Origin: a virus
Taxonomy: Duplodnaviria > Caudoviricetes
Length of the DNA stretch: 64,000 bases
Direction: 5' to 3' (one strand)
Virus record (IMG/VR): IMGVR_UViG_3300019889_000013
Span: 508-64,507 of that record
Positions 22,620 through 54,800 of this stretch are shown here, piece after piece. The translations under genes and the position numbers were made by a program. A model generated the notes under the pieces. It was given only the letters and a program-made list of their open reading frames with translations, had not been told where the DNA came from and did not search any database. The stretch's first letter is position 1. Every line of letters starts with the position of its first letter.

Positions 22620-22862
22620 ATGAACCTGATCAAGATCGCCACCACCAAAGCAGGGGAAATTATCATCAATCTCGATCACGTCAGATGTATCGAGCCTGTG
22701 GAATGGGACGATGAGTGGAAATGGTTCCAGTTCACCTTCACAGATGGTTCGACCCGGCGGTTTGATTTCGAACTGTATTTCGAAGCTTTCTCGATACTCC
22801 CCGGCTTGTCGCTCAGTTATGATCGCGACATCTGGCATGAACGTGAGGCTGCGAAGGAGTGA
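22620..22862 (+). CDS. hypothetical protein
   Basis: MNLIKI...IINLDHVRCIE; GGGAG RBS. Confidence 0.6.
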   Translation: MNLIKIATTKAGEIIINLDHVRCIEPVEWDDEWKWFQFTFTDGSTRRFDFELYFEAFSILPGLSLSYDRDIWHEREAAKE

Positions 22863-22962
22863 AGTTATCCGCTCTCCCACCCCTTGGTCTTCCCAAGAAA
22901 TTTGTGGTACGCATCACGTCGCAAGGATTTTACCAACCAACCGGGAGAAACGGGGGAACGAT

Positions 22963-23292
22963 ATGCCAGATGAACGCTGGTCCAGTAGACGATCTCACCA
23001 CCAACTGCACGAAGCACTTGAGCATCAGCACGAACTGCTTCATCAAATCAAAGAAGGAATTTTGATCATGACCGCTGCCCTAGATCGCATTAAGCAGGAA
23101 GTTTTCGAAACCAAGACGGCTGTTGCTTCCATCCTCACACTCGTTGCCGGTCTTGCAACGCAGATTCGCGAAAACGCCGAAGACCCTGTTGCCCTTAACG
23201 CCTTGGCTGACTCCCTTGATGCAGACCAGCAGGAGATTGCCGCTGCCATCACGGCCAACACACCTGCACCGCCGGTCGAATCCGGGCAGTAA
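22963..23292 (+). CDS. coiled-coil protein
   Basis: LDRIKQEV.E.KT.V.S...L..GLA......DP.AL..LA..LD.....AAAITANTPA. Confidence 0.65.
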   Translation: MPDERWSSRRSHHQLHEALEHQHELLHQIKEGILIMTAALDRIKQEVFETKTAVASILTLVAGLATQIRENAEDPVALNALADSLDADQQEIAAAITANTPAPPVESGQ

Positions 23293-23723
23293 TGGGCGTT
23301 CTCAAAAACCCCAAGCATGAAGCGTTCTGTCAGGCCCGTGCGCTTGGCAGGACGCTGGAGGAGGCCTACGCCGATGCAGGCTACAAGCCGTCAAGGCAGC
23401 ATGCGCAGCGTCTGGCGACAAAGGGCTACATCAAGGATCGGCTGAAAGAATTGCAAAACCATGTGGTCGAAAAGTTCGAGATCACGGTCGAACTGATCAC
23501 CAAGATGCTCAAGGAGGATCGTGCCTTCGCCCGCAAGTGCAAGGTGCCATCCGCTGCGGTGCAGGCGACGATGGGCCTCGCCAAGGTCGCAGGATTGCTG
23601 GTCGAGCATGCCACCCTGCAAGTTAGCCATAGCTATTCTTCGATGACCCTTGATGAAATCCGATTCGAGCTTGCGGCCCTCAATGCCGAAGCGCGGTCAC
23701 TCAAGCCGGGAGTGCAGCATTGA
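23292..23723 (+). CDS. terS: terminase small subunit
   Basis: LKNPKHE.FCQ...G....AY..AGY.P....A.RL.....I..R..EL HTH N-terminus; upstream of terL. Confidence 0.8.
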   Translation: MGVLKNPKHEAFCQARALGRTLEEAYADAGYKPSRQHAQRLATKGYIKDRLKELQNHVVEKFEITVELITKMLKEDRAFARKCKVPSAAVQATMGLAKVAGLLVEHATLQVSHSYSSMTLDEIRFELAALNAEARSLKPGVQH

Positions 23724-23989
23724 TCCCCGCCGGACCCATCTCGCAGGTTGACGACTTCGAGCCCCAGCCCAGTGACATGGTGCTGTACATCCGCGACGGC
23801 CATCCGATCATCCATGCCCCGGAGAACGACGGCGGCGTGGTGCCGGACGATTTTCTCATCCTGCTCGGCGTTGCCGCAAGCTGGCACAATCCCGACTTCA
23901 GGGCCAAGATACTGGGGCTGATCAACAAGCTGGCCGAAGAGGGCAACTTGCGCGACCTGATGGGCCGCTCCGATGAACGACCCCACTAA
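23720..23989 (+). CDS. hypothetical protein
   Basis: ORF between terS and terL. Confidence 0.55.
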   Translation: MIPAGPISQVDDFEPQPSDMVLYIRDGHPIIHAPENDGGVVPDDFLILLGVAASWHNPDFRAKILGLINKLAEEGNLRDLMGRSDERPH

Positions 23990-24194
23990 AGCCACATGTG
24001 CGGCTTGCGGCGGTGACCAGTACCTGCGCTATTCGATGTGGCATGGCGATGATCCGATCTGCAAACCGTGTTTCCTGATCTGGTACGATTGCCCGATAGA
24101 CCTCGACGTTACCGACCCGGAAGCAGTCGGAGCCGAATCCAGACGGCGCAAGGAGGCTGGTGAGTGGCCTTGGAACGATGAACGCTTTACTTGA
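23973..24194 (+). CDS. Zn-ribbon hypothetical protein
   Basis: CAAC...ICKPC. Confidence 0.6.
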   Translation: MNDPTKATCAACGGDQYLRYSMWHGDDPICKPCFLIWYDCPIDLDVTDPEAVGAESRRRKEAGEWPWNDERFT

Positions 24195-24978
24195 TGACAT
24201 CCTGCCGCCCGAGATCATCGCGCGGCTGCCACTCCAGAGCCAGCAGCACTACGCAGCACTGACCGCCACCCTGATCGAGCGGCTGAAGCAGCGTATGTTC
24301 TTCGACCTGTTCCCGGACAAGGACACGCTCGACCGCGACGGCAGCGTGCTGATCTACCGGCGCGAACTCTATCCACGGCATCTGGAGTTCTTCGAGGCGG
24401 GCTTGACCTACCGCGAGCGCTGCTTCCTCGCCGCCAACCGCGTCGGCAAGACCACCTGCGGCGCGTATGAAACCACCTGCCACCTGACCGGGCTCTATCC
24501 GAACTGGTGGACCGGCAAGCGTTTCACCATGCCAATCCGGGCATGGGCCTGCGGCAAGCGCAACGAAACCACCCGTGACATCGTGCAGGCGGCGCTGCTC
24601 GGCCCCATTGCTTACGATGGCGTGCGCAAAATACTTCAGGGAACTGGCATGGTGCCCGGAAATCTACTTGGCCGGGTCACATGGAAACGCGGCGTTGAAG
24701 ACTTGGTCGACACCGTCAAAGTACAACATTCGTCTGGCGGCTGGTCGACACTCAGCATGAAGTCATACGAGCAGGGGCGCGGCTCGTTCGAAGGTACATC
24801 GCAGCATGTGATCTGGCTCGATGAAGAATGTCCGATGGACGTCTACGGCGAGTGCCTGATCCGGCTGATGACGACGCAGGGCATCCTATTGATTACGTTC
24901 ACGCCGCTTGAAGGCATGAGCGAAACTGTACTACAATTCCAGCTTCTGACCGACAAGGCGATACTGGGACACATGTGA
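24178..24978 (+). CDS. terL: terminase large subunit, N-terminal ATPase part (P22 gp2-like)
   Basis: RERCFLAANRVGKT (Walker A), HLTG.YP.WW.G.RF, KSYEQGR..FEG, IWLDEE (Walker B), TFTPLEG (coupling motif); stops before the lid and nuclease. Confidence 0.9.
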   Translation: MNALLDDILPPEIIARLPLQSQQHYAALTATLIERLKQRMFFDLFPDKDTLDRDGSVLIYRRELYPRHLEFFEAGLTYRERCFLAANRVGKTTCGAYETTCHLTGLYPNWWTGKRFTMPIRAWACGKRNETTRDIVQAALLGPIAYDGVRKILQGTGMVPGNLLGRVTWKRGVEDLVDTVKVQHSSGGWSTLSMKSYEQGRGSFEGTSQHVIWLDEECPMDVYGECLIRLMTTQGILLITFTPLEGMSETVLQFQLLTDKAILGHM

Positions 24979-24979
24979 T

Positions 24980-25198
24980 ATGCGACACCACAACTGGGAC
25001 GAGTTCCGTTCGCTGCTGATGCGCGAGGCCACCAGCCACGACATCGCCTCGCGCACGGTCCTCGCCGACCGGCTCGGCGTCGGCTACCGGCGGCTGTTCG
25101 AATGGCTGTACCGGGGCGTGTTGCCCAACCGCAAGAACCTGACGATGCTGGCAGAAAAGACCGGCAACGAGCGCTATCTCAAGCTGCGCGATTTTTAA
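24980..25198 (+). CDS. XRE/Cro-type HTH protein
   Basis: SRTVLADRLGVGYRRLFEWLYRGVLP....L..LA. Confidence 0.7.
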   Translation: MRHHNWDEFRSLLMREATSHDIASRTVLADRLGVGYRRLFEWLYRGVLPNRKNLTMLAEKTGNERYLKLRDF

Positions 25199-25210
25199 GG
25201 GGAGAACAGC

Positions 25211-25507
25211 ATGACCGAAGAGTATTACGAGTTCCTGCTCGCCAACGGCTACGCGCTGGTGCGCCAGATCGGCGTCACCCACTGGGCGGCGATCTACCGC
25301 TTCGGCTTCACTCACGCCATCATCCTTGGCGAGATCGGCGACCGCGCAGGCTATGCCGACCGCTGGTGCTACCACACGGTGAACGATGCGGCGCGGGCGC
25401 TGTTGGCATGGGACGGCAAGGGCGAGCCCGAAGGCTGGCACCGGCATCCGCCATCCGGCAGGCGTCGGCCCGAAGGCCTCGCGGAACTGGAGTACATCCT
25501 GCCGTGA
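25211..25507 (+). CDS. conserved phage hypothetical protein
   Basis: F.FT.AII.G....GY.DRWCY.....A..AL.AWDG.GEP.GWHRHP.SGRRR. Confidence 0.75.
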   Translation: MTEEYYEFLLANGYALVRQIGVTHWAAIYRFGFTHAIILGEIGDRAGYADRWCYHTVNDAARALLAWDGKGEPEGWHRHPPSGRRRPEGLAELEYILP

Positions 25508-25536
25508 CCGACGAGCCCTCAAACCGGGTTCCGCCG

Positions 25537-25722
25537 ATGAAACACACCAACATCAACGTCCCGTCGTGGCAGATGACCGCGCTGATCGAGGCGACCGCCG
25601 ACATGCAGCGCCACATCCATGCGGTGGAAAACCACGTCTGGTATCTGACCCTGTACGCGAAGGCCTCGACCGTCGCGGTGGTGCTTTTGGCTGTCATGGT
25701 GGCGGTGGCGGTTCTGGTGTAG
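25537..25722 (+). CDS. small membrane protein
   Basis: C-terminal hydrophobic segment. Confidence 0.5.
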   Translation: MKHTNINVPSWQMTALIEATADMQRHIHAVENHVWYLTLYAKASTVAVVLLAVMVAVAVLV

Positions 25723-25759
25723 ATTGCCCGCACCCCTAACCCGAGAGGAAGCTTCGAAG

Positions 25760-26113
25760 ATGTCCGACGAAACCGACCAGCAGCGCTACGAGCGCACCAA
25801 CCTGTCCTCCGTCAGAATGACCGACGACGAGTCGAAGGCGGTGCAGAAGACGCCGAACCGCATCGACCTCGATGACATCCTCGCCAAGATCGAGTTCGAG
25901 GACTACATCGCCCCGGAGCGCCACCCGCACATGACCCTTTGTGTCGTCACGCTGGACAACGGCTACATCATCATCGGCAAGTCGACACCGGCCGACCCGC
26001 TCAACTTCGATGAGCAACTCGGGCGCAAGTTCGCCAAGGAGGATGCCATCCGCCAGATATGGCCGCTCGAAGCCTACCTGTTGCGCGAGCGCATGAGCGG
26101 CATGGGCGAGTGA
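25760..26113 (+). CDS. Gp49/Sf6 gp66-family protein
   Basis: RI....I.AKI....Y....MTLCV..L.NG..I.G.S..ADP.NFD...G.K.A...A..QIWPLE.YLL. Confidence 0.85.
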   Translation: MSDETDQQRYERTNLSSVRMTDDESKAVQKTPNRIDLDDILAKIEFEDYIAPERHPHMTLCVVTLDNGYIIIGKSTPADPLNFDEQLGRKFAKEDAIRQIWPLEAYLLRERMSGMGE

Positions 26114-26154
26114 ACGAATCAGGACCGAATCAGCAACGCACAAGGGAACAGACC

Positions 26155-26379
26155 ATGACCGAATCAGCACCCGAGAAGACCACCGATGAACTCAAGGCTG
26201 AACTGGCGAAACTCTTGGAGAGGGCCTCGAAGCAAACGGCCACCCCGGAGGGCGCATCCGGCGCATTCGGCATGCCCAACCTGTGGGGGCTCGTCGCCGC
26301 CCACCTGATCACGGCCATCGAGCAGATCGTGCGGGAAGCGTTCCAGCGCTATCAGGCGGAGCAGAAGCAGCAGAAGTGA
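26155..26379 (+). CDS. hypothetical protein
   Basis: 74-aa ORF, AGGGA RBS. Confidence 0.6.
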   Translation: MTESAPEKTTDELKAELAKLLERASKQTATPEGASGAFGMPNLWGLVAAHLITAIEQIVREAFQRYQAEQKQQK

Positions 26380-26380
26380 C

Positions 26381-26424
26381 AAAAAACCCCACGGCGCAGG
26401 GGTGGTGCGTTTTATCCGTGGGGG
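26381..26424 (-). terminator. rho-independent terminator on the minus strand
   Basis: ccccacgg/ccgtgggg stem with an A6 run on the left (U6 on the minus strand). Confidence 0.6.
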
Positions 26425-26496
26425 AGGAGAAGCGTCAACATTCGGACCACCAAGCTACTGGAGGACCGCGCTGACCATAGCGCAGAGGAGACAGCC

Positions 26497-26994
26497 ATGC
26501 CAACGAAATACAATCCCGACACCGGCGTGCCCTATTTCATCCCGGACTTTGGCGAGGAGATCGAGGAAGGCGTCACCCCGAAGCCGACCGTGCTTTCCTC
26601 CAAAGCCGATGTGTTCAAGGGCGACAAGAAGCCGACCAAGCGGGAATACGAGAAGCTGCGCGACGGCCCCAAGGTCGAGCCCGTCGATCCCGCCCCGTAC
26701 ATCCACCCGGATGACAAGGGCAAGCTGTGGTCGAGCGAACAGGTCTACCGGATGATCGAGGCGGTCACCACCAAGGCAGGCCAACTGGTGACGCCGGACC
26801 AGTACGAGAGGCTGAAGGCCGAGATCGAGAGCATCGGCGGCGAACTCAACGCCGAACCGGCCAAGCTCGACAAGGATTGCGCCACCGACGAGGAGATCGA
26901 CGCGGTCGAGCGGATGGCCGAAGGGCGCGAGGTTCCGTACTGGCCGATGCTGCTGCGCCTGCTCAATCGCCTGCGCAAGGCTGAAGGCACATGA
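26497..26994 (+). CDS. hypothetical protein
   Basis: 165-aa ORF, GAGGAG RBS. Confidence 0.7.
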   Translation: MPTKYNPDTGVPYFIPDFGEEIEEGVTPKPTVLSSKADVFKGDKKPTKREYEKLRDGPKVEPVDPAPYIHPDDKGKLWSSEQVYRMIEAVTTKAGQLVTPDQYERLKAEIESIGGELNAEPAKLDKDCATDEEIDAVERMAEGREVPYWPMLLRLLNRLRKAEGT

Positions 26995-27179
26995 CCTCCG
27001 ACTTCTGGTATCTCATCGGCCACAACTACGAAGTCCGGGTGTTCAAGACCAAGCGGCAGGCACAGGCGATCTTGAACATGCTCGATGACGACAGCGACTA
27101 TTACCAGTTGCACAGTGGCCGCTATGGCGAGGAGTTCTCGGGCTGGATCGGCGAGGCGCGGCCCCATTCATCCGGGTGA
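26991..27179 (+). CDS. hypothetical protein
   Basis: ATGA-coupled 62-aa ORF. Confidence 0.55.
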   Translation: MTSDFWYLIGHNYEVRVFKTKRQAQAILNMLDDDSDYYQLHSGRYGEEFSGWIGEARPHSSG

Positions 27180-27243
27180 TTGCGTTTCGCGCCGGTTTGG
27201 ATGATAGTCTCGCGGTCAGAGAACTGGCTTCGAGGGGTCGACC

Positions 27244-27549
27244 ATGCCGCTATTCCTGACAGAGTACCGAGACAGCGCGAGAGATACCGGCTCGAACTTC
27301 ATCGCCGCAGGCATGGAGCCAGCCGTCGCCGAACAGCAGATCGTCGCGTCCGGAACCTCCGCCCAATCCGCCCTCTTCAACAACCAGACATCCTTCGTCA
27401 TGGTCCACGCGCAGGAAGCGGTGTGCCTGAAGTGGGGCGCTAACCCGGTTGCGGTCACCACCGCGCAGCGCATGGCGGCGGGCGAAACCCGCTATGTCGG
27501 CATCCCGGCAGGGCGCGGCTTCCGCGTCGCTGTCATCGCAGGAGTGTGA
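27244..27549 (+). CDS. conserved phage protein (possible virion component)
   Basis: LF.TEY......EPAVA.Q.....TS.QSA.F...T.FV........G.NP.A.T...RMAAG.T.Y.G. Confidence 0.7.
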   Translation: MPLFLTEYRDSARDTGSNFIAAGMEPAVAEQQIVASGTSAQSALFNNQTSFVMVHAQEAVCLKWGANPVAVTTAQRMAAGETRYVGIPAGRGFRVAVIAGV

Positions 27550-27553
27550 AATC

Positions 27554-28102
27554 ATGATGTCAGGTTCCAGAGGCGAAACGTCCGACGCCTTCACCAGCCT
27601 TCTCGGCATCGTCGGCGACCCGGCGGCCACCAAGAAACGCATCGAGCAGTTGCAGGCGGCGACCAAGGCCAACGAGGATTCACTGGTGGAACTCCAGACC
27701 AAGCGGGCCGAACTCGACACGCAGGCACTGGAACAAGGCAGGACCGACGACAAGCACTCGAAGGAACTCATCGACATCCAAGCCAAGCACGCCGAACTCG
27801 ACCGGCGCGAACGCAAGGTCATCGCCAAGGAACAGGCGCTCAAGGACGATATCGCCAAGCACGACGCCGAGAACACCACCGACCGGCAGGCCATCCTCGA
27901 CCATCAGGCCGTGATCGAAGGCTTGGCCAAGGTGACCGACGTCCGAACCGCCGAACTCGACCAGCGCGAGGCCGATCTCGATGAGCGCACCACGCAGGTG
28001 ACGGCCGACCGCGACAAGCTCGCCGCCTTCGAGGAACAGTTGCACGAACGGCAGGCCGACATCGACAAGCGCTTCGAATCATTGAAGGCGCTGGTCGGAT
28101 GA
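27554..28102 (+). CDS. coiled-coil protein
   Basis: Long heptad pattern. Confidence 0.7.
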   Translation: MMSGSRGETSDAFTSLLGIVGDPAATKKRIEQLQAATKANEDSLVELQTKRAELDTQALEQGRTDDKHSKELIDIQAKHAELDRRERKVIAKEQALKDDIAKHDAENTTDRQAILDHQAVIEGLAKVTDVRTAELDQREADLDERTTQVTADRDKLAAFEEQLHERQADIDKRFESLKALVG

Positions 28103-28335
28103 AGGGCGAGCAAGTCGGCATGGGCATGGGCAATGTGACCGTGGTCACAACGTCCGGCGGCGGCAGGCCGCCCGAGTATTTCGCCCAGCGCATCATGGAC
28201 AAGCTGATGTACGTCGGCGACAACGCCCCGGACCCGATCAAGGAGCAGGCACTGGTCTACCAGCAGAAGATGCACGCGATCATCCTCGCCGGGATCAAGG
28301 CGGCCATCGAGAGTGATCGCATCTACCGCAAATAG
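28099..28335 (+). CDS. conserved phage protein
   Basis: V.TT.G.G.PPE..A.R..DK...V.D.AP..I..QA.......AI.SDR; a family usually found upstream of MAITQA-type genes. Confidence 0.7.
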   Translation: MKGEQVGMGMGNVTVVTTSGGGRPPEYFAQRIMDKLMYVGDNAPDPIKEQALVYQQKMHAIILAGIKAAIESDRIYRK

Positions 28336-28350
28336 GAAGGACGTCCGACT

Positions 28351-28794
28351 ATGGCCCCCACCCAAGCCATCTGCACCACATTCAAGCAGGAGCTTATGAC
28401 CGCCCTGCACAACTTCACCACCGCCGCGCACGCCTTCAAGATGGCACTGGTCACGTCGGCCTCGACCATCTCCGGGGCGACCGACCACTATTCCGGCGGC
28501 ACCAACAACATCTCCAGCGAGGTCGCATCCGGCGGCAACTACACCACCGGCGGCGCGGCGCTGACCAATGTCACGCCGACCGTGTCCTCGACCACGGCGC
28601 TGACCGACTTTGCCGACGCGACATGGGCGACATCGACCATCACCGCCAGAGGCGCGCTGATCTACAACACCACCTCGTCCAACCGCTCGGTGCTGGTCTT
28701 GGACTTCGGTTCGGACAAGTCGAGTTCCGCCGGGGATTTCACCGTGGTGTTTCCGGCAGCGGACGCATCCAACGCCATCATCCGCATCGCTTGA
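28351..28794 (+). CDS. putative virion structural protein (MAxTQAxCTxFKxEL family)
   Basis: FK.AL...YT.GG..L...TP.......DFAD.TW...TITARGALIYN......V.VLDFG.DK.S..GDFT..FP.ADA.NAIIRIA. Confidence 0.8.
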   Translation: MAPTQAICTTFKQELMTALHNFTTAAHAFKMALVTSASTISGATDHYSGGTNNISSEVASGGNYTTGGAALTNVTPTVSSTTALTDFADATWATSTITARGALIYNTTSSNRSVLVLDFGSDKSSSAGDFTVVFPAADASNAIIRIA

Positions 28795-28805
28795 TCCGAT
28801 GACAG

Positions 28806-31800
28806 ATGGCATGGTCCTTCGTCGGCGTTAGCACAACAGTCACCGCGACAGCATCGCCGATAGTCCTGACCATGCCTGCGGGTACGCAGGAAGGCGATCT
28901 ATTAATCGCCCACATCGCCTACCGCATCGCCTCGACCACGGCGATCACCAAGCCAGCCGACTGGATACTGGCGGCGACCGACCGGCTCAACAACGACGTC
29001 ACCACCACCACCTCGTCGCTGTCCTCCGCCATGATGGCCTACTGCGTCAAGGGTCCGACCGATCCCGGCCTGTCGTTCGCCTTCCCGACCACCCCCAGCA
29101 TCGCGCTCGGCACCATCGTCGCCTATCGCGGCAACGCCCCGACCAATGTGCTGAATGTCGCCATCGCGGCCAACGCGGCGGCCAACACCACGGCGCTCAA
29201 TGCCACCGGCGTGACGACGACCACGACCGATGCCCTGCTCGTCGCCGCGATGGCGGGTGGCTCGGCCGGGACGTGGAGCGTCTACAAGACCACCACGCCG
29301 GGAACCGCCGCCAGCGGTGGCAGCGTCACCACCGCGCCATCCGATACGACATGGAAGCAGCGGGCAGGCAACACCACGACGACCGGCGCGGACACGGCCC
29401 AGTACATCTACGACGCGCTCAAGGTCGTGGCGGGTGCGACCGGCAACCAGACCGCGACGATCTCGTCCGGGGCGCGGCCCTCCAGTGCGCTGGCTTCGTT
29501 CAAGCAGCCGGTGCTGAATATCGAGAACGGCTGGAGCCAAGGCGACAAGATCGCCACCGTCGTCCTTTCCGGCCACGACAAGATCGCCGCAGGCCTGACC
29601 ACCACCGGCGTGCGCTCGACCAAGGCGTACCTGCCCGGAACGGCGGGCAAGTATTATGGCGAAGTCTGCGTCACCGGCACGACGCCCAGTGCCTGCCGCA
29701 TCGGCATCGCGCCGATCACCAATGCGCTGACCGCCACCACCGCCAACATGAACGTCAACGGGACAAACGGCTCGATCTTCGTCAATGCCGTCGACACCAC
29801 GCTGACGGTCGGGGCGACCGCCCTCGTCGCCAACGACGTCATCTGCATCGCATGGGATGCGGGCGCGGAACTGATCTGGTTCCGCAAGAACGGCGGCAAC
29901 TGGAACAACAACGCCACGCATGACCCGGCCACCGGCGTCGGCGGCATCTCCTGCTCGTTCGCCCCGAACACGGTCTATCACGCGCTGTCGGCGACCTTCA
30001 CCGGCACCCTGACCGCGACCATCCGCACGCAAGTCGGCGAGTTCACCCAGAGCGTCCCGTCCGGCTTTGCCGCGTGGGCACCAACCCACGTCGATGCCCC
30101 GATACGCGGCGTCGACTACCTCAAGAACCCGGCGTGGACGGCAGGCGCGACCACCACGATGTCGATTGCTGGCGGCAAGGCGAGGGCGACGGCCACCGAC
30201 AGCGTCGCCAACAACCCGCGCCTTGCCAAGACCATGACCGGCCTGACCATCGGCCGCGTCTACGAGGTTTCCGGCGGCAACGTCTACATGGGCACGACGC
30301 CTACGCCGCAAGTCTATGTCCGCGTCAGCGATACGGTGCTGCTCGATGCGGCCTCGTCGCGCTACAACGTCGGCGAGACGGCCGACGCCGACCCGCAGAG
30401 CTTCACCTTCACCGCGACGCAGACCACCCACTATTTCGGCTTCATCCCGGTCTGTAACGCCAATGGCCAGTACGGTGAACTCACCGACACGATCCAGTGC
30501 TTCGAGGACACGCCGGTCGGTAACGACGTCGGCATGGCCATCACCTGCGGCAGCGTCACCGTCTCGACCCCGGCGGGCGGCCCCGATGTGTCTGTCAACG
30601 TCACCAGCCCCGGCGCGCTGACGGTTACGCTCGGCAACGAATCTGTCGTCGGCAAGGCCAATGCCGTCATTGCCAGTGTTCCCGGCCTGACCTCTGCGGT
30701 CGGCACGGTCTATATCCCGACCGCCTATACGACGCTCAACCCGCTCGACAAGAAGAATGTCAACGTCGTCCTGTCCAACGGCAACCTCACCGTCAGCGGC
30801 AGCGACGTAAGCAACAACTGGGTGCGCTCGACCACGGCCAAGACCGGCAAGCGCTACGTCGAGTTCACCACCACCACCGTCGCCAATTCCATCAACGGCA
30901 TCTCCGACCTGTCGGCGCTGACCTACCCCGGTGCCGACGCCCATTCCTTCGGCCAGTTCGCCAACGGCGCGGGCTCGATCAACGGCACCTTCCCGGCATG
31001 GGGGCCGACCTACGCTTCCGGCGACGTCTTGGGCATGGCCGTCGATTTGACCGCCAAGCTGGTGTGGTATCGCGTCGGCGCGGGATCATGGAACGCGGGC
31101 GGCACCGCCAATCCTGCGACAGGCGTCGGTGGCTGGGACATCTCGCTCTATACCGGCACGCCGCACCACCTCGTCGTCAGCGGCGATACCGGCATGGTCA
31201 CCACCGTCAACTTCGGTGGTACCGCCTTCGCCAACACCGCCCCGGCCGCCTTCATTGCTTGGGACGCGGTGCCCGCCGTCGATGTCAGCGTCAACGTCAC
31301 CGGCAACGCCTTGACCATCAGCCAAGGTGACGAGACGGTCGTCGGCAAGGCCAATGCCACCATCTCGATGCTGGCCAACGGCATGACCGCCACGCTCGGC
31401 GACGAGAGCGTCACCGCCAACCAGAGCGTGTCGACCACGATCTCGGCGGTGCCGGGGATGACCATCACGGCGGGCACGGCCACGGCGTCGGCGGTGATCC
31501 ACGTTTCGACCAACGTCACCGGCAATGCACTGGCGATCAGCCTTGGCGACGAGACGGTGGTGATCGAGGCCGATGTCGCCGTCACCATGTCATCCCTCAA
31601 CATATCACTCGGCAATGAGAGCGTGACCGGCATTGCCAATGTCGCCGCGACCAGCCCGCCGCTGGTGATCACACTCGGCGACGCCTTCGCTTCGGTGCCG
31701 GAAATTGCCGAGGTCAGCGGCTTCGAACTCGACATCGACATCGGCGACGCAAGCGTGTCACTGCCCAAGACCGTCAACGTCAGCGGCAACTTCATGCTGG

Positions 31801-32240
31801 CTTCACTCGGTTCGGTTGCGGTTGCGGGCGGTGCCGGGGCGGTGGTCACGGCGATGCCAGCGCTGACATCGAGCCTTGGCAACGAGAACGTGATCGGCAC
31901 GGCCAACGTCGACATCACCGGCATTCCGCTTGCCATCACACTCGGCGACGAGGTGGCCAGCGGCAACGCCATCGTCGCCGTCACCAGCCCCGCATTGCTC
32001 ACCGTGGGGCTCGGAGACGAGGTGGTCAGGCTCAACACCGCGATCCCTGTCAGCGGCTTTGGGCTCACCGCATCGACCGCCAATCCGGGCGGTATTTCGG
32101 TTAATTTCTCAATCAGCGTTATAGTCACGGGATTCCGACTGACGGTCTTGATCGGCAGTCAGGTCTACGTTCCCCAAGCGTCGTCACCCATCCAGCGCGA
32201 GGGCATCATGAAAACGATGGCCAACATGATGGGCAATTAG
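28806..32240 (+). CDS. large fibre/adhesin-like protein with two SPRY/lectin-like domains and C-terminal beta repeats
   Basis: Thr/Ala-rich; two VRST..K.GK.Y.E...DV...A.D.....W.R...W......PATGVGG domains; repeated V.VTG.AL...LGDE.V motifs. Confidence 0.75.
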   Translation: MAWSFVGVSTTVTATASPIVLTMPAGTQEGDLLIAHIAYRIASTTAITKPADWILAATDRLNNDVTTTTSSLSSAMMAYCVKGPTDPGLSFAFPTTPSIALGTIVAYRGNAPTNVLNVAIAANAAANTTALNATGVTTTTTDALLVAAMAGGSAGTWSVYKTTTPGTAASGGSVTTAPSDTTWKQRAGNTTTTGADTAQYIYDALKVVAGATGNQTATISSGARPSSALASFKQPVLNIENGWSQGDKIATVVLSGHDKIAAGLTTTGVRSTKAYLPGTAGKYYGEVCVTGTTPSACRIGIAPITNALTATTANMNVNGTNGSIFVNAVDTTLTVGATALVANDVICIAWDAGAELIWFRKNGGNWNNNATHDPATGVGGISCSFAPNTVYHALSATFTGTLTATIRTQVGEFTQSVPSGFAAWAPTHVDAPIRGVDYLKNPAWTAGATTTMSIAGGKARATATDSVANNPRLAKTMTGLTIGRVYEVSGGNVYMGTTPTPQVYVRVSDTVLLDAASSRYNVGETADADPQSFTFTATQTTHYFGFIPVCNANGQYGELTDTIQCFEDTPVGNDVGMAITCGSVTVSTPAGGPDVSVNVTSPGALTVTLGNESVVGKANAVIASVPGLTSAVGTVYIPTAYTTLNPLDKKNVNVVLSNGNLTVSGSDVSNNWVRSTTAKTGKRYVEFTTTTVANSINGISDLSALTYPGADAHSFGQFANGAGSINGTFPAWGPTYASGDVLGMAVDLTAKLVWYRVGAGSWNAGGTANPATGVGGWDISLYTGTPHHLVVSGDTGMVTTVNFGGTAFANTAPAAFIAWDAVPAVDVSVNVTGNALTISQGDETVVGKANATISMLANGMTATLGDESVTANQSVSTTISAVPGMTITAGTATASAVIHVSTNVTGNALAISLGDETVVIEADVAVTMSSLNISLGNESVTGIANVAATSPPLVITLGDAFASVPEIAEVSGFELDIDIGDASVSLPKTVNVSGNFMLASLGSVAVAGGAGAVVTAMPALTSSLGNENVIGTANVDITGIPLAITLGDEVASGNAIVAVTSPALLTVGLGDEVVRLNTAIPVSGFGLTASTANPGGISVNFSISVIVTGFRLTVLIGSQVYVPQASSPIQREGIMKTMANMMGN

Positions 32241-32251
32241 GAGGGGTTCCT

Positions 32252-32473
32252 ATGATCAGCGCATTGATAACACTCATCATTTACCTGATGGTTCTCGGGC
32301 TGTTGTACTGGCTGGTGATCTACGTCATCGACACCATCCCGATCCCCGACCCGCCCGCCCGCATCATCAAGATTTGCCTGATGGTGCTGATGGTGCTGAT
32401 CATCGTCGTGCTCCTGCTCAACATCTTGGGCGGCGGAACCAATCTCAACATCCCCAAGATCAGTGTGCAGTGA
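32252..32473 (+). CDS. small membrane protein (Thivi_2564-like)
   Basis: LI..II...V.GLLYW.....P...P...II.....L; two TM segments. Confidence 0.7.
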   Translation: MISALITLIIYLMVLGLLYWLVIYVIDTIPIPDPPARIIKICLMVLMVLIIVVLLLNILGGGTNLNIPKISVQ

Positions 32474-33222
32474 TGGGAGAAGTTTCCTCTTCGCGCTACA
32501 TCGTGCAGGCCGGATGGGACTCAGTTCCTCATCTGGATGAAGCCACCAAGCGGGAACTGCTCGAATCGACACCGGAATACCTGCGCGACGCCCGCTCGAA
32601 GGGCGAACCGACAATGGGCTCGGGGGTGATCTACCCGATCCCGATCTCCGACATCGAGGTCAAGCCGTTCGCCATCCCCTTCGGCTGGAAGAAAGCCTAT
32701 GCGCTCGATGTCGGCTGGAACCGCACCGCCGCCTTGTGGGGTGCGCAGAACCCGGTCGACGGTACGATCTATCTCTACTCGGAACACTACAAGGGCCAGC
32801 AACTCCCGGTCGTGCATGCCACCGCCATCAAGGCGCGCGGCGAGTGGATCAGGGGGTGCATCGATCCGGCGGCGAAGGGCTCATCCCAGAAGGACGGCAA
32901 GCAACTCAAGGCCGAATACCAGTCGCTCGGCCTCATCCTCACCGACGCCAACAACGAACTGGAGGCCGGTCTGGTCGCGGTCTGGCAGGCGCTGTCGCTG
33001 GGGCAACTCAAGATTTTCTCGACATTGCAGTCGTTAAAGGCCGAATACCGGGTCTACCAGCGCGACGAGCACGGCAAGATCAAGGATGGTCAGGCCGACC
33101 ACCTGATGGATGACATGCGCTATCTGTGGCGCACATGGTCGAAGATCGCCACACTGCCGCCGCTGAAGATCAGCCGGGGCGGATCAGGCATGGAAAACGC
33201 GGATCAAAGGGCAGGGTACTAA
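32473..33222 (+). CDS. terL: terminase large subunit, C-terminal lid plus RNase H-like nuclease part
   Basis: WD.VPHL....K.EL....P...RDARSKG.P.MGSG.IYP, A.DVGWN.TAA.W, IDPAA, DHLMD..RY; ATG overlaps the upstream stop (TGATG). Confidence 0.9.
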   Translation: MGEVSSSRYIVQAGWDSVPHLDEATKRELLESTPEYLRDARSKGEPTMGSGVIYPIPISDIEVKPFAIPFGWKKAYALDVGWNRTAALWGAQNPVDGTIYLYSEHYKGQQLPVVHATAIKARGEWIRGCIDPAAKGSSQKDGKQLKAEYQSLGLILTDANNELEAGLVAVWQALSLGQLKIFSTLQSLKAEYRVYQRDEHGKIKDGQADHLMDDMRYLWRTWSKIATLPPLKISRGGSGMENADQRAGY

Positions 33223-33223
33223 G

Positions 33224-35656
33224 ATGGCCGACATGATGACGATGAACCCACCGGCGCAAAATATGCAACTGCCGGAAAGCCTCGCCCCGGAACAGCAGCT
33301 AAGGCCGCCATCCCGCGACAAGCTCAAGGAGATCGTCGGCCGCATGGAGGCGGAAGTCACCGCCCGCATCGGCAAGCGCACCAATCTGGAGGAGCGCTGG
33401 ATTGCCGATCTGGAGCAGTACCACGGGCGCTATGACCCGCCGACCGCCAAGGTCTTGTTCGAGGAGCAGCGCTCGGGCCTGTTCATCAATGCCACCCGGC
33501 CAAAGACCGACGCGCTCGGGGCGCGGCTCAAAGACCTGTTGTTTCCGACCGACGAGAAGAACTGGGGTATCTCGCCGACGCCGGTGCCGACACTGGCCGA
33601 GAGTGCCGAGAAGGCCGCCGCCGATTTCCGCGCCAAGCAGGAGCAGGCCAAGGCGGCGCAGGAGCAACAGGCAACGGCGGCCGAAGCGGGCGCACCGCCG
33701 GACCAGCAGGCGCAGTTGACTCAACAGGCGACGCAGCAACAGGCGCAGGCCGACGAGGCCAAGGAAGCAGCATCGGTGCTGGCAGCGCGGCTGGAGGAAG
33801 GCCGCAAGCGCTCCGACCTGATGGAGAAGGAGATCGATGACCAGTTGAAGGAATGCCTGTACCAGTCGGTCAAGCGCGACCAGATCGACTGCGCGGTCAA
33901 GCTCGGCACCGGCGTGACCAAGGGGCCGGTGACGGGCGACAAGGTGCGGCGCGGCTGGAAGGCCGACCCGCAGACAGGCGAGCACAAGCTTGACGTCTCG
34001 ACCGGGCAGCAACCGGCCTACCGCTATGTCGACCTGTGGGGATTCTTCCCGGACATGGACGCCACCAAGATCGAGGACGGCAACGGCACCTTCGAGCGCC
34101 ATTTGATGAACCGGCGCATGCTCAGACAGCTTGCCGTGCTCGAAGGCTTCGACAAGGATTCAATCCGCCGCCTGCTCCAGCTTGCGCCGTCAACGTCGGC
34201 CCCGGCTTACCTTGCGCAACTCCGCAACATCCGCGCCGCAACCCAGCAGGTGACCGGCGATCTCTACCATGTGTTCGAATATTACGGGCCGCTCGAACCG
34301 CAGGACATGCAGGACATCGCGCTGTGGATGATGCAAAGCCAAGACGAGACGGTCAACGGCATCGCCAAGGAAGGCTTGAGCCAAGTGGCGGAAGTCGACC
34401 CGCTGGCGTCGGTCAACGCCTGCATCTGGTTCTGTCAGGGCGAGATATTGAAGTTCGCGCTCTACCCCTACGACAGCGGCGAGTGCATCTATTCGGTGTT
34501 CAACCTTGTCAAGGACGAGGCCTCGATCTTCGGCTATGGCATGCCGTCGATCATCCGCGATCCGCAGTCGGCGTTGAACGGCGCGTTCCGGGCGATGATG
34601 GACAATGCCGGGGTTTCCTCCGGGCCGCAGGTGATCATCGACACGCAGAACATCGAACCGGAGGACGGCGACTACCGGCTCAAGGCACGCAAGGTGTGGA
34701 AGGCCAAGAACGGCATCCAGAAGGAAAACCCGCCATTCCAGTTGTTCCACATCGAAACCCGGCAGAACGAACTCGCCAACATCATCGTCCTGTGCGAACG
34801 CTTCATCGACAACATGTCGGCGATGCCGCAGGTGATACAGGGGCAGCAGGGCGAGGTCGGCACCAACAACGCGCAGAACACCGCGACCGGCATGGCGCTG
34901 ATGCACAACTCCGCCAACACGGTGTTCCGCTCCATCGTCAAGAACTTCGATGACGACGTGACCACGCCGGACATCCGCCGCGCCTACGACTGGAACATGC
35001 AGTTCAACGAGAAGCCCGAGATCAAGGGCGACTTCGAGGTCGACGCACGCGGCAGTAGCGTCTTGCTGATGCGCGAATTGCAGGCGCAGAACCTGATGGT
35101 GATCGCCATCCAACTCGGCGGCCACCCGATCTTCGGGCCGATGCTGCGCAACCGCGAACTCCTCAAAAAGATATTCCAAGCCTACATGATCCCGGCCGAC
35201 GAGGTGATGCTCTCCGACGACGAGATCGATGCGATTCTGGCGGCGGCAGCGCAGAACAACGAGGCGGCAGCGGCGGCCAAGGCGCAGGCCGAAGCCGACG
35301 AGAAGAAGCTCGCACTGGAGAACCACAAGCTCGAAATGCAGGTGGCGCTGGCCAACCAGTCGAACGCCTCGAAGGAGCGCATCGCCAAGATGAACTACGA
35401 TGCGCAGATGAACATGACCGCCGCCAAGCTCAACATGTCGGTGCAGGAACTCGAAGCCATGCTGGCGGGCAAGGAGATGGACGTCGCCTCGAAGGAGCGC
35501 ATCTTCGCCTCCGAAGTCGGGGTCGAGCAGAAGAACGCCGAAGCCGCCCGCGCCAGAGGCGAGGAGCCGCAGGGATCAGGCGGTTATGTCGCCGGTGGCG
35601 GGTCGGCCGCGCCAGCAAAACCGGCCAAGCCGGTGGAACAGAGAGCGCCGTATTGA
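33224..35656 (+). CDS. portal protein
   Basis: 810 aa directly after terL; EERW..D..QY.G.YD, F.N.TRPK...ARL.D.LFP...NWGI, S.FGYG.P, TATGMA.L, IKGDF.VDARGSS.L. Confidence 0.88.
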   Translation: MADMMTMNPPAQNMQLPESLAPEQQLRPPSRDKLKEIVGRMEAEVTARIGKRTNLEERWIADLEQYHGRYDPPTAKVLFEEQRSGLFINATRPKTDALGARLKDLLFPTDEKNWGISPTPVPTLAESAEKAAADFRAKQEQAKAAQEQQATAAEAGAPPDQQAQLTQQATQQQAQADEAKEAASVLAARLEEGRKRSDLMEKEIDDQLKECLYQSVKRDQIDCAVKLGTGVTKGPVTGDKVRRGWKADPQTGEHKLDVSTGQQPAYRYVDLWGFFPDMDATKIEDGNGTFERHLMNRRMLRQLAVLEGFDKDSIRRLLQLAPSTSAPAYLAQLRNIRAATQQVTGDLYHVFEYYGPLEPQDMQDIALWMMQSQDETVNGIAKEGLSQVAEVDPLASVNACIWFCQGEILKFALYPYDSGECIYSVFNLVKDEASIFGYGMPSIIRDPQSALNGAFRAMMDNAGVSSGPQVIIDTQNIEPEDGDYRLKARKVWKAKNGIQKENPPFQLFHIETRQNELANIIVLCERFIDNMSAMPQVIQGQQGEVGTNNAQNTATGMALMHNSANTVFRSIVKNFDDDVTTPDIRRAYDWNMQFNEKPEIKGDFEVDARGSSVLLMRELQAQNLMVIAIQLGGHPIFGPMLRNRELLKKIFQAYMIPADEVMLSDDEIDAILAAAAQNNEAAAAAKAQAEADEKKLALENHKLEMQVALANQSNASKERIAKMNYDAQMNMTAAKLNMSVQELEAMLAGKEMDVASKERIFASEVGVEQKNAEAARARGEEPQGSGGYVAGGGSAAPAKPAKPVEQRAPY

Positions 35657-35899
35657 TGCGCCGGTTGCTCAGATGGTTCGGATGGATCGACCGCAAGCCG
35701 GGAGACATGTGGCCGTTTCCGTTCGCCGGTCTTGAACCGGGACCAAAGGGGAAAAAATGAAGGAGGGACCAGACGAAGATGACGAACTGTTCCGCCCGAA
35801 AAAACGACCAGACCGGACGGTATTCTGGACCATCGTCTGCGTCATCTACACCTTCATCATGCTTGCCGGGATCATCTGGTATGGAAGGGATTTGAGCCA

Positions 35900-36106
35900 A
35901 TGACCAAGAAGCTGTTCGAGAAAAAAGGTAAAGCCATCATCATGGACCGCCGCGAAGCGTGGGACGGTATCTGCGAACTGTGCGGCAAAGCGGACGATCT
36001 CAGGCCATACGGCCCCAACAACGAGATGATCTGCTACGACTGCGGCATGAAGGACGAGGCGACGACCGCCCGCAAGTTTGAAGAGTTCATGCGGGGGCAG
36101 GCATGA
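35900..36106 (+). CDS. Zn-ribbon hypothetical protein
   Basis: CELCG...LRPYGP..E.IC..C. Confidence 0.7.
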   Translation: MTKKLFEKKGKAIIMDRREAWDGICELCGKADDLRPYGPNNEMICYDCGMKDEATTARKFEEFMRGQA

Positions 36107-51842: not shown

Positions 51843-54800
51843 ATGGTCGATATCGATGCCTTGTTCGCGGATGTTCCCACCGAAGCCGAACGGGTGGCAA
51901 TGGACAAGGCCAGCCTGCTCTTCGCGGACATTCCTGACGAGAAGCCAGCGGACGAGACGGGCTGGGTCGAGGGGGCTGTAACCGGAACGCTCAACACCGG
52001 GGCGCGTGCCGGGGCGCGGCTCCAGCAGGGCGGTTCCCAGTTGATGCTGGAACAGACGGCCGGTCGCGCCGCTGACCGCAAGCGGAGCTTCAGCGAGATT
52101 CTGGAAGACGAGCAGTTGTCGAGCGGCCTGACCGACATGCAGGGCAAGCCGATGAAAACCAACACCGGCGGCGAATATGTCTCGGCAGCGGCCCGCTGGA
52201 TTGATGCCAAGTATGCCGACATGATCGGCACGGACGACGAGGCGGCGGCACAGTCCTATGCCGAAAGCATGCAAAAACACATGGACGAAGTCGCGTCGAT
52301 ACCGAAGTCGCAGATCGCGCAGGCGTTCGAAAAGAAGGCGATGGTCAAGGACGCAACGCTGGGCCAGACGCTGGCCAACTTCGGCAGCGCGATTCTCGAC
52401 AATCCGGTCGGCGGCTTCTCATGGATGCTGGAGACGGCAGGAGAAAGCGCGCCGCAGATCGGCGCGGCGGTCATTGGCGGTGCGCTCACCAAAAACCCGG
52501 CGGTCGGCATCGGCCTGATGGGCGGCGGCAGCTATGCGACGGAACGCTACACGTCGCCCGGTGAGTTCTTTCAGGAGAAGGGGTTGGACCTCAAGAAGCC
52601 GGAAGACCGGGAAAAACTGCTCAATGATCCGAAGATGATGGCGGAAGCGGCAGATCGCGGCATGATCCGTGGCCTGATCATCGGTGGCTTCGACGCTCTC
52701 TCCGGTGGCATCGCAGGCAAGGCGCTGATCAAGAATCCGTTCGCCGAAGCGCTGGCGCAAACCATGACGCAGGGCCTGCTCGGCGCAGGCGGCGAATATG
52801 GCGCGCGCAAGGCGGCCGGTCAGAAGATCGACTGGGGCGAAGTCGTCGCCGAAGGCTTTGCCGAATTGGTCACCACGCCATTCGATATGGTCGCCGCCGC
52901 AAGGGGCGAACGTCCCGGCACCGCCGACGAGGCGCTCCCGGCCGGGGATGTCCTGCCAGCGGAGCCGCCGGTCGTGCCTCCCGGAGCAGCACCCGCAGCA
53001 CCGCCGGAAGCAGCACCGGCAGCACCGGCCGTGCTGGAAGCGGCAGGCTTGCCGAAGACACCCGAGAATATTGCGGTCGCCGAAAGCGTGCCGGAACAGG
53101 TCGCGCGCCAGACCGAATTGCCCGACAGCCCACGGCTGACACCGGCCGACCGCGCCTCGCCCATCCCCAACGAGATCATCGACGCAGGCAGGGCAACGGT
53201 CGAGGCGGCAACCGGGCAGGAATCAAGCTTCACCACGACGAAGGTGGTCGACGGCCACCGGCAGGTGGTCAACGCCAAGGTGTCCGATTTGGTCGCCGCC
53301 AACCGGGTCGAGACGCAGGCGGTGGTATCGGAGATCATGCAGGGGGTTGATACCCCGGAAATCCTTGCACAGCCCCAGCCAGCCGCCGCGCCTGCAAGCA
53401 CGGGCGAGATGCCGGGTACACTCGGGCCTGTTGAGGCTTCCGCCTCTGTAGCGCCTTCTATGGCCGAAACCGCGCCGGTCGCCCCGACCATAGAACGCGC
53501 CAACCAGCCGCCGCCTGCCGAAGGCTCGCCGCTCGCCGAACAGATCAAGAAGTTCAAGGCGCGCTCGGCCGCCCGCGATGTCGAGGTATCGGACCTCACC
53601 GCAAGCGGCAAGTCGATCAAGCTGGTGTCGAACCGAGATCCGACCCGCAAGGCGATGGTCGGGCCTGACATGAGCGAGCCGGGGAAATTCCGCGTCACCT
53701 ATATCGATGAGCAGGGGCCATCCGGGCACACGGTCTACGACACGATGGAGGAAGCCGCGCGCAGTGTCGTCGGCTCCTATCATCCCGTTGGCAATATCGC
53801 CAAGCAGGTGGTCAAGAAGGATGTGGCCATCACCCCGGCCGGACGCGAGGTGCCGGTGGTCTATGCCGTTGTCGAGGCCGACGATCTGGTTTCCTCGCAG
53901 CGCGACGAGGGCGGGGCCAACCCGGCCTATCCGCAGGAATTGCAGCCGCGCGACCGCAGCCGTGGCACGTCGGACGTGCAGATCAACCAGATTGCGCAGA
54001 ACCTCAACCCGGCACTTCTCGACAACGTTGCCAGCGCCACCGATGGCGCTCCCATCGTTTCCGCCGATGGCGTGGTCGAGAGCGGCAATGGCCGCGTGCT
54101 CGGCATCCGCAAGGCCTACAAGGAGAACCTGCCCGGAGGACAGACCTACCGGCAGTATCTGGTCGACCAAGGTTATATCGACACCGTCGCGGCCAAGGAG
54201 ATGAAGAACCCTGTGCTGGTGCGCATCCGGCAGGGGCAAATGGAGCCCGGTGAGCGGACGGCATTTACCCGCGAGGCCAACGAACGCACGACGATGACAT
54301 TGTCGGCGACGGAAAAGGCGATGGCCGATGCGGAGGCGCTGTCGCCGGATACGGTCGGGCTCTACAGGGGCGGCGAGGTTGCGGAGGCAGGCAACCGTGA
54401 CTTCGTCCGCTCCTTCATGCAGTCGGTGGTCAGTCCCAACGAACAGGGCGCGATGGTCACCCCGGACGGGGAACTGTCGCAGGAGGCCATCCGCCGGGTA
54501 CAGGCGGCGCTCCTCGCCCGTGCCTATGGTGACGCCGATCTCGTCGGGGCTCTGGTCGAATCGACCGACAACAACATCAAGGCCATCGGCGGCGCGATGA
54601 TGGATGTCGCAGGCGCGTGGTCGCAGATGCGTTCCGAATCCAAGGAAGGCACGATCAGCCCAGACGTCGATGTCACCCCCTTCCTACTCGAAGCCATCCG
54701 GCTGGTGCAGCGGGCGCGCAACGAGGGCAAGCCGCTGTCGGCGCTGGTGTCGCAGACCGACATTTTCTCCGGGACGACCATCGTGCCGGAAGCCGAGATG

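Follow-up and report, generated by a model that had tools for sequence, protein, structure and literature searches.

A large terminase encoded in two genes on either side of a variable cargo slot in podovirus-like phages

We analyzed a 64,000-nt stretch of viral DNA (the window), positions 508-64507 of the 64.5-kb IMG/VR viral contig IMGVR_UViG_3300019889_000013, which is classed as linear and 78% complete (CheckV) and encodes a podovirus-like soil phage. Its large terminase subunit (TerL), of the P22 gp2-like / Terminase_6 type, is not the usual single polypeptide. Instead, its two parts are encoded by two open reading frames (ORFs) 7494 nt apart, with around 13 further ORFs in the gap between them. 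We consider it likely that this is a natural two-chain TerL, in which an ATPase core and a second chain, made of the last ATPase subdomain (presumably what work on P74-26 calls the 'lid') and the nuclease, are translated separately and associate non-covalently. The two genes, here called the N-half and the C-half, are:

24160..24978, plus strand: TerL N-half, the ATPase RecA-like core; 272 aa from a GTG at 24160 or 266 aa from an ATG at 24178; Terminase_6N 2.6e-16; phrog_31467 2.7e-81; positions 230-402 of phrog_2.
32473..33222, plus strand: TerL C-half, 249 aa; phrog_5653 3.3e-17; positions 422-595 of phrog_2; P22 gp2 nuclease (4DKW) 7.4e-14 over residues 47-219; mapped through the fused relative L022.

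An initial annotation of the window, made from its sequence alone, had described TerL as lying in two genes, and the ORFs and their Terminase_6N, phrog_2 and 4DKW matches agree with that description. The N-half carries Walker A (NRVGKT at 93), Walker B with the catalytic Glu (WLDEE at 219) and the coupling motif (TFTP at 246), all invariant in the family alignment, and stops 12 residues beyond the last homologous position. There are two candidates for its start: the sequence AAGGAGG lies 3 nt upstream of the GTG, and the alignments of relatives begin near the ATG. Its top PHROG match, phrog_31467, is a family of 261 positions labelled 'unknown function', which means that N-half-only proteins are already present, unrecognised, in reference collections. 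The C-half begins with the last ATPase subdomain (residues 1 to ~48; one strand and two helices) and continues from residue ~49 as an RNase H-like nuclease with the acidic motifs LDVGW at 78, IDPA at 130 and DHLMDD at 209; its Pfam match to Terminase_6C (6.7e-4) scores 20.1, below the cutoff of 22.6. As the same annotation had stated, the start of the C-half overlaps the stop of an upstream 73-aa gene as TGATG, and the portal gene follows directly, starting 2 nt past the C-half stop. When aligned to an intact homologue, gp39 of EBPR podovirus 1 (among the nearest isolated phages), the two halves are contiguous, both parts lying in one gene about 40 nt apart.

In comparisons of the window with three close relatives, dN/dS (the ratio of nonsynonymous to synonymous substitution rates) was 0.09-0.15 for the N-half, 0.055-0.14 for the C-half and 0.22 for the portal, with synonymous sites at or near saturation. 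Both TerL halves are under strong purifying selection. Degeneracy of either half, which the initial annotation had named as an outcome that would speak against it, was not seen: the motifs are intact and dN/dS across the two halves is 0.055-0.15.

Searched against solved structures as a single sequence and as a profile, the N-half gave no match, and its ATPase fold is placed only via a predicted model of L022, a 480-aa relative with a naturally fused TerL, which was folded with a 21-row alignment (mean predicted local distance difference test score, pLDDT, 81.7). Around the break the model contains the following elements, in residues of L022:

214-219: strand carrying the coupling motif.
226-231: helix.
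232-241: loop (DSSP); the blocks covering 221-240 have pLDDT ~53, the lowest internal stretch.
242-246: strand.
257-277: two helices.

The N-half of the window ends at about L022 residue 232, and the C-half strand RYIVQA corresponds to L022 residues 243-247. Solved ATPase domains align with residues 31-282 (P74-26, Z 19.4) and 16-282 (T4 gp17, Z 14.3-14.4) of the model, and solved nuclease domains with residues 283-464 (P22, Z 25.6; SPP1 and G20c too). Because the ATPase alignments run to 282 and those of the nuclease start from 283, the break is predicted to fall ~45 residues within the ATPase domain, in a flexible loop, and the C-half to comprise the last ATPase subdomain plus the nuclease. 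This is consistent with the 'lid and nuclease part' of the initial annotation and with its placing of the break in a variable loop; among fused relatives the loop varies in length by 0-30 residues, as would fit a site tolerant of a break.

The same split was found in related phages. The N-half identified 38 related loci among viral contigs, and 16 more were obtained from isolate genomes and metagenome-assembled genomes (MAGs); the halves were located by tblastn. Both halves were present in 51 locus rows, 34 split and 17 fused. These rows include repeats from the same contig (L029/L046, L003/L045, L009/L049 and L013/L050) and near-identical sets (L005-7, L016/17, L018/19, L030-35 and L053-58). 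Taking one locus per repeat or near-identical set, plus the window and G002, gave 36 non-redundant loci:

Split with an insert of 0.2-11.5 kb: 18 of 36 loci.
Split, genes adjacent or overlapping: 7 of 36 loci (L010, L014, L015, L025, L051, L053 and L059, each with consecutive genes).
Fused: 11 of 36 loci.

The three closest contigs (G001, G002 and G004), with N-halves 73-80% and C-halves 79-88% identical to those of the window, are all split, with gaps of 11.5, 11.2 and 4.7 kb, respectively. Split prophages occur in bacterial genomes as well: the gap measures 4.0 kb in that of the complete Aminobacter sp. UC22_36 chromosome, 0.42 and 2.7 kb in those of Azospirillum cavernae and Azospirillum sp. 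B506, respectively, and 1.0 kb in that of a Roseovarius MAG. Wherever a contig is long enough, both TerL genes are present together. The C-halves of split relatives have an ATG of their own and open with a conserved MPE(I/V)(T/S)SS(R/K)Y, and their N-halves run 6-20 residues beyond the last homologous position, in tails that are not conserved.

An N-half tree was built from 32 rows, excluding duplicates, rows whose best N-half hit was <=150 residues (L039, L040, L059 and L060) and the N-only fragments L004, L061 and L062. It placed the window in a clade of 17 rows (Shimodaira-Hasegawa-like approximate likelihood ratio test support, SH-aLRT, 98), every one of them split; fused forms stood only outside this clade, and the minimum number of fused/split changes was three. 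The C-half tree (35 rows) recovered the same inner group of 9 rows with a support of 97. Members of the split clade are ~50-60% identical to the window. A search with the N-half against a library of 1.84 billion representative proteins returned 2843 hits; among the best 150 of these, the match reached the split point in 138, of which 69 end <=35 residues past it, 53 go on for >=150 residues and 16 are ambiguous. These comparisons suggest that the split is old and inherited in a lineage of alphaproteobacterial podovirus-like phages and prophages, which we hold to be probable. Conservation across the clade, intact motifs and purifying selection on both halves uphold the natural split terminase that the initial annotation had inferred.

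Some of the related loci deserve separate mention. At L010:9917-11439, on a low-GC (0.44) contig, the N-half belongs to the split clade and is 61% identical to that of the window, and the adjacent C-half is 40% identical to the window's and clustered at support 99 with L038, whose distant TerL is fused. The L010 halves seem, from these affinities, to have recombined at the TerL junction, and their membership of different groups would mean that recombination acts also at the junction itself. In three Bryobacterales MAGs we found six loci (L053-L058), two per MAG, with an adjacent-split TerL whose halves are 43-45% identical to those of the window and whose N-half stop lies at the C-half start; two loci in each MAG imply at least two copies of one prophage type per genome. 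In the isolated Xanthomonas phage DES1 (OK624832.1, 31227-33251), the N-half match falls into two pieces, over which three features are annotated (hypothetical protein, large terminase protein and terminase family protein), and its terL, judged from this pattern, may also be interrupted.

Four other explanations of the two genes were weighed. The record is a short-read metagenome assembly, and two phage genomes or regions could have been wrongly joined. A misassembly check, as suggested by the initial annotation, was made with contigs from a different assembler (Logan), which cover 24000-30832 and 30807-33500 with 0 differences and cross both TerL/cargo junctions on long contigs; they possibly come from the source sample and are hence not independent. 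The Logan contigs break at ~30.8 kb within a repeat-rich gene for an 1144-aa protein, as a chimera might, yet that ORF is continuous across 30.8 kb in the window, and the order N-half, cargo, C-half and portal recurs in three other IMG/VR contigs and several isolate genomes. A chimera is therefore almost certainly not the explanation. A decaying or defective prophage with a terL inactivated by cargo insertion could be imagined, since interruption of an essential gene usually signals decay, many of the relatives are integrated in bacterial chromosomes and the record is incomplete. Such decay is at odds with the strong purifying selection on both halves at saturating synonymous divergence, with the retention of all catalytic motifs and of intact portal and head genes alongside, and with the persistence of the split throughout its clade; frameshifts or lost motifs in either half were not seen across most relatives, and N-half-only proteins make up half (69/138) of the best library representatives that reach the split point. 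We regard a broken terminase as very unlikely. A further possibility is that the halves are functionally independent, the core working with another partner or the nuclease half cutting alone, with no stable heterodimer. The pairing in L010 of a split-clade N-half with a foreign C-half speaks for this, as it implies that the halves can be exchanged independently. Set against it, the ATPase fold of solved domains goes ~45 residues past the break, which would leave the core alone without its last subdomain; the inner clades of the two trees agree apart from L010; and the two genes occur together. Independence thus seems unlikely to us, if a little less so than decay.

Most published cases of split terL (PMC4246154, PMC12880540 and PMC2677866), as these sources describe them, are ones in which a single-chain product is restored, and a giant or trans-splicing intron, a split intein, ribosomal bypassing or developmental DNA excision might rejoin the halves here as well. 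No Rfam family matched window 23000-34000 at E<=1, and at the Rfam gathering score the loci of nine relatives gave tRNAs only. The 13 packed genes, well formed and with the phage's own bias in G+C content at third codon positions (GC3), and the existence of insert-free split relatives argue against a novel ribozyme missed by Rfam. Those adjacent-split relatives have nothing to remove: their stop and start codons, which are in different frames, overlap or almost touch (as TAATG in L010, for example). None of the Logan contigs joins 24978 to 32473. Pfam searches of both halves found no intein at the window junction, where the N-half ends in a 12-residue tail that is not conserved between relatives and the C-half begins within homologous sequence; the parts of described split inteins measure 88-105 and 33-54 residues (PMC2677866), so the tail leaves no room for one. 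Inteins do occur at other TerL sites: Intein_splicing matches were found in TerL ORFs of L016, L030, L039 and L040, and homing-endonuclease domains in L037. Because inteins are common elsewhere in the family, their absence at the split junction is informative. Pfam and PHROGs likewise found no endonuclease or recombinase in the window gap, and the search for terminal repeats, direct or inverted, at the edges of the gap gave only short, low-identity matches. The earlier statement that there is no intein, homing endonuclease, recombinase or junction repeat thus stands for the window; it does not extend to relatives, as L016 (3.6e-5) and L040 (1.3e-9, plus a RyR-domain gene) have an HNH endonuclease at the same TerL junction. 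Taken together, we consider rejoining of the halves highly improbable.

The long in-frame TerL insertions with Intein_splicing, LAGLIDADG or Hom_end matches, which affect the ATPase part as well as the nuclease part, are at L016:8807-10579, L040:5956-8568, L030:3672-6308, L037:10-2037, L016:11135-12841 and L039:477-2165. Inside two such insertions (in L016 and L040), minus-strand ORFs match HNH_3 (8.6e-10 in L040) and are either antisense genes or shadows of the plus-strand frame.

Several points weigh against a natural two-chain TerL and its single inheritance. A cut within the ATPase domain rather than at a domain boundary might damage the motor. The C-half has no obvious Shine-Dalgarno sequence and relies on coupling to the small gene upstream. 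The Logan contigs bridge the two junctions singly, and the whole gap is not covered in one piece. Outside its inner group, the C-half tree is poorly resolved and calls for seven fused/split changes, compared with three for the N-half tree, which makes the number of independent origins uncertain. Some of the 69 library proteins ending at the split point may be fragments cut at contig ends. Finally, the phage is known here as a metagenomic contig of 78% completeness, and the binding of the two chains is something we infer.

The gap between the halves is a cargo slot, with a size of 0-11.5 kb at the same protein position in the relatives, as the initial annotation had proposed for the split site. 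That annotation counted about 14 unrelated genes; we count around 13, and they are unrelated only in part, as a four-gene block and the 73-aa gene are conserved in close relatives. All gap ORFs lie on the plus strand, tightly packed and with the GC3 bias of the phage itself, in the order of four small ORFs, a gp49-family gene, more small ORFs, the four-gene block and the gene for the 73-aa hydrophobic protein:

24980..25198, plus strand: 72-aa ORF starting 1 nt past the N-half stop; GC3 0.89; no Pfam or PHROGs family; no homologue in G001, G002 or G004.
25211..25507, plus strand: 98-aa ORF; phrog_24748 (unknown function) 9.9e-7.
25537..25722 (approximate), plus strand: candidate small ORF of ~61 aa with a hydrophobic C-terminus, an open frame in the translation of 25501-25730.
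25724..26113, plus strand: 129-aa gene of the N4 gp49 / Sf6 gene 66 family; Pfam Phage_gp49_66 2.8e-21; phrog_322 3.5e-29.
26059..26379, plus strand: ORF of up to 106 aa that probably starts further downstream; no Pfam or PHROGs family.
26497..26994, plus strand: 165-aa ORF; 44% identical homologue in the G002 gap; no Pfam or PHROGs family.
26991..27179, plus strand: 62-aa ORF; GC3 0.85; no Pfam or PHROGs family.
27449..28102, plus strand: ORF of up to 217 aa, the first of the shared block; homologues in the gaps of G002 (40%) and G001 (32%); no Pfam or PHROGs family.
28099..28335, plus strand: 78-aa ORF of the conserved block; 77% identical in G002; dN/dS 0.24.
28351..28794, plus strand: 147-aa gene; phrog_644 2.5e-20; 80% identical in G002 and 79% in G001; dN/dS 0.19-0.34.
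28806..32240, plus strand: giant 1144-aa protein, fibre/adhesin-like; phrog_10080 2.6e-28; SPRY 5.9e-4, below cutoff; ~12 copies of a 66-69 nt repeat in the C-terminal third.
32252..32473, plus strand: 73-aa small hydrophobic protein gene; two transmembrane stretches by eye; lower GC (0.54); no Pfam family.

The four-gene block (217-aa, 78-aa, 147-aa and 1144-aa proteins) is common to the window, G002 and G001, and its 78-aa and 147-aa proteins are 77-80% identical, like TerL itself. By eye, the charged, heptad-like sequence of the 217-aa protein may form a coiled coil, and the 147-aa protein is possibly fibre-associated. The nearest named Atlas cluster for the latter, the Gp80 'fiber I' domain of podophage GP4, is a lead only: its score of 0.85 is below the reliable level and too weak to name a function. 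The giant protein has divergent counterparts, of 1934 aa in G001 and of 832 aa in G002, where it has a Fibritin_C match at 1.1e-5. Within window 30255-32057, a 48-nt core recurs ~12 times in its gene, mostly at intervals of 66-72 nt, and encodes a motif like LGDE-V-G-A-V; these repeats suggest a repetitive beta structure. The 73-aa gene is kept upstream of the C-half in G001 and G002, where it also overlaps the C-half as TGATG, and partly in G004; that its product is holin-like or a membrane anchor is a guess. Directly past the N-half stop, the four genomes (window, G001, G002 and G004) have no shared sequence or conserved motif.

The slots of other genomes hold different genes. That of G004 (L046:5139-5363) encodes a 74-aa protein whose Acb2/Tad1 hairpin domain scores above the Pfam cutoff (7.7e-12), from a family known for anti-CBASS/anti-Thoeris nucleotide sponges. 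DNA-binding proteins are encoded in the slot of G001, a gp49-family gene together with beta-helix or adhesin-like proteins in those of the Azospirillum prophages L012 and L013, and an LPD23-domain protein in that of L026. Pairwise comparisons of relatives with near-identical TerL place the exchanges at the edges of the TerL genes: between L005 and L047, 3.2 kb is present only in L047 and homology is back exactly at the C-half start; between L009 and L012, homology ends at the N-half stop and returns 7 nt before the C-half; and between L012 and L013, a fibre/adhesin-like gene is replaced.

Upstream of the slot, replication and DNA-metabolism genes occupy the left third of the window on the minus strand. 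After them comes the late region, on the plus strand, which encodes a TerS-like protein, TerL, the portal, the major head protein and tail proteins, as well as a giant protein of 2787 aa and an endolysin. The portal and head genes flanking TerL are intact, and the packaging genes lie between the TerS-like gene and the portal:

23292..23723, plus strand: TerS-like gene, 143 aa; phrog_51 (terminase small subunit) 1.6e-10; Pfam Terminase_2 5.6e-4, below cutoff; homologues in G001, G002 and G004 at 50-52% identity.
33224..35656, plus strand: portal protein, 810 aa; phrog_332 8.8e-32; portal families phrog_1216 and phrog_156; 81% identical in G002.

The 2787-aa protein (window 51843-60206; phrog_5143 2.4e-74 over residues 660-1043) adjoins the endolysin gene and is probably, by analogy with other podoviruses, a giant internal virion or ejection protein. 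A YbcO-family putative nuclease is encoded on the minus strand at 61675-62046 (Pfam 1.5e-24; phrog_131 'HNH endonuclease' 4.8e-26), far from the terminase genes and outside the TerL gap. Across 22800-36000, neither promoter-like sites (3, against 2.8 in shuffled sequences) nor terminator-like sites (8, against 10.4) were in excess. A GC-rich hairpin with T-runs on both strands at 26386-26403, between two cargo ORFs, is the only terminator-like site of the slot that is clearly intergenic, in a region whose terminator-like count is not above chance. In a soil metagenome of another study, short contigs with 95-100% identity are scattered over the cargo region (24000-33500; share 0.07 of sampled words), and a close relative of the phage seems to be present at low abundance in this second soil sample.

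A natural two-chain TerL would work as follows. The ATPase core and the lid-nuclease chain would be separate translation products of the late operon, and the C-half would lay its first strand and helices against the N-half core, completing the ATPase fold and forming one non-covalent unit per motor subunit. Once the gene was split, the gap would have become a slot for the gain, loss and swap of genes, with the conserved halves as fixed recombination flanks. The cargo would probably be read within the late packaging operon, because all of it lies on the TerL strand and is tightly packed. An origin of the split by homing-endonuclease insertion is plausible, as seen in L040, which the C-half tree places apart from the main split clade and which has an HNH gene in its gap, fitting the genes-in-pieces route known from other phage enzymes (see below). 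The HNH gene of L016 was probably acquired later, because its clade was already split.

Several known systems resemble parts of this arrangement. In cluster AY Arthrobacter phages (for example, BillyTP), the large terminase lies in two genes in the majority of the cluster (PMC11920828), so that separate ATPase and nuclease genes are the normal state there, as they are in the window clade (17/17 rows). By the description given for cluster AY, those genes are consecutive and correspond to the ATPase and nuclease domains, whereas in the window 7.5 kb separates them (<=11.5 kb in relatives) and the break is predicted ~45 residues within the ATPase domain. Free-standing homing endonucleases are associated with other genes in pieces, among them Aeh1 nrdA (interrupted by mobE), T4 gene 60/39 (by mobA) and the split gene 43 of Aeromonas phage 25 (PMC2988022). 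As TerL probably is here, these are essential phage enzymes in two polypeptides that come together without splicing, and HNH genes stand at the same TerL junction in L016 and L040. They differ in that trans function of NrdA and gp43 is described there as shown biochemically, whereas the TerL of the window is known from its sequence, and in that the window gap contains around 13 other genes and no endonuclease.

Group I introns split terL in Lelliottia phage phD2B and K1E (PMC4246154) and, with support from RNA reads, in Jug phages (PMC12880540). In these cases, as here, two or more ORFs together make up the full-length protein, often with a homing endonuclease between them in the intron cases. 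According to these accounts, however, they are spliced at the RNA level, whereas in the window no intron model matched, the insert holds many genes and insert-free relatives are still split. Dassa et al. (2009; PMC2677866) described fractured genes, among them that of a gp17-like terminase, in which split inteins occur together with a free-standing endonuclease, and proposed endonuclease-driven breaking. That terminase likewise occupies two genes of a single locus, separated by other DNA, but its halves are described as ligated by split-intein parts, and the window junction is without intein sequence. Between terL and portal, Microbacterium phages carry blocks of 17 (Quhwah) and 40 (Hendrix) ORFs (PMC7302621), so their packaging module, like that of the window, has room for large blocks of small, functionally uncharacterised genes directly upstream of the portal; as described, the Microbacterium terL is one gene with the block after it, whereas the window block is inside the terL coding unit.

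Herpesvirus UL15 is a two-exon terminase gene whose intervening stretch contains genes and which is spliced into one mRNA and one protein. The resemblance to UL15 noted in the initial annotation holds as an analogy between gene-containing interruptions, and nothing in the window indicates splicing.

As far as these sources describe, what was already known is the two-gene terminase as an annotation remark (cluster AY), intron-split and intein-split terL, and gene blocks between terL and portal. Literature searches, which did not extend to subscription journals and supplements, yielded intron, intein and consecutive-gene cases and no account of a non-spliced TerL enclosing multi-kilobase cargo or of a break inside the ATPase domain; two-gene terminases are not mentioned in the Mic1 or Avs2/Upx papers.

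TerL is the most conserved protein of tailed phages, a standard marker for phylogeny and detection, and the model for viral packaging motors, which are described as rings of single-chain subunits. Subunits of two chains, cut inside the ATPase domain throughout a widespread lineage, would be a natural experiment on communication between the ATPase core and the lid and nuclease. Such split genes will be overlooked or cut short by annotation pipelines and in TerL-based trees. As to why the split has been retained, we offer, tentatively and as a rather unlikely proposal, that it is useful rather than a neutral scar: the halves would provide fixed flanks for swapping host-range genes (giant fibre-like proteins) and counter-defence genes (as the Acb2/Tad1-like one of G004) between co-infecting relatives by homologous recombination, imprecise deletion would be lethal, so that cargo would not easily be lost, and the cargo would be expressed with the late packaging operon. 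More speculatively still, a two-chain TerL might change or delay the target of the terminase-sensing bacterial sensors of the Avs family. A slot flanked by the halves of an essential gene, with fibre-like and possibly anti-defence genes that vary between near-identical phages, is a good hunting ground for host-range and counter-defence genes.

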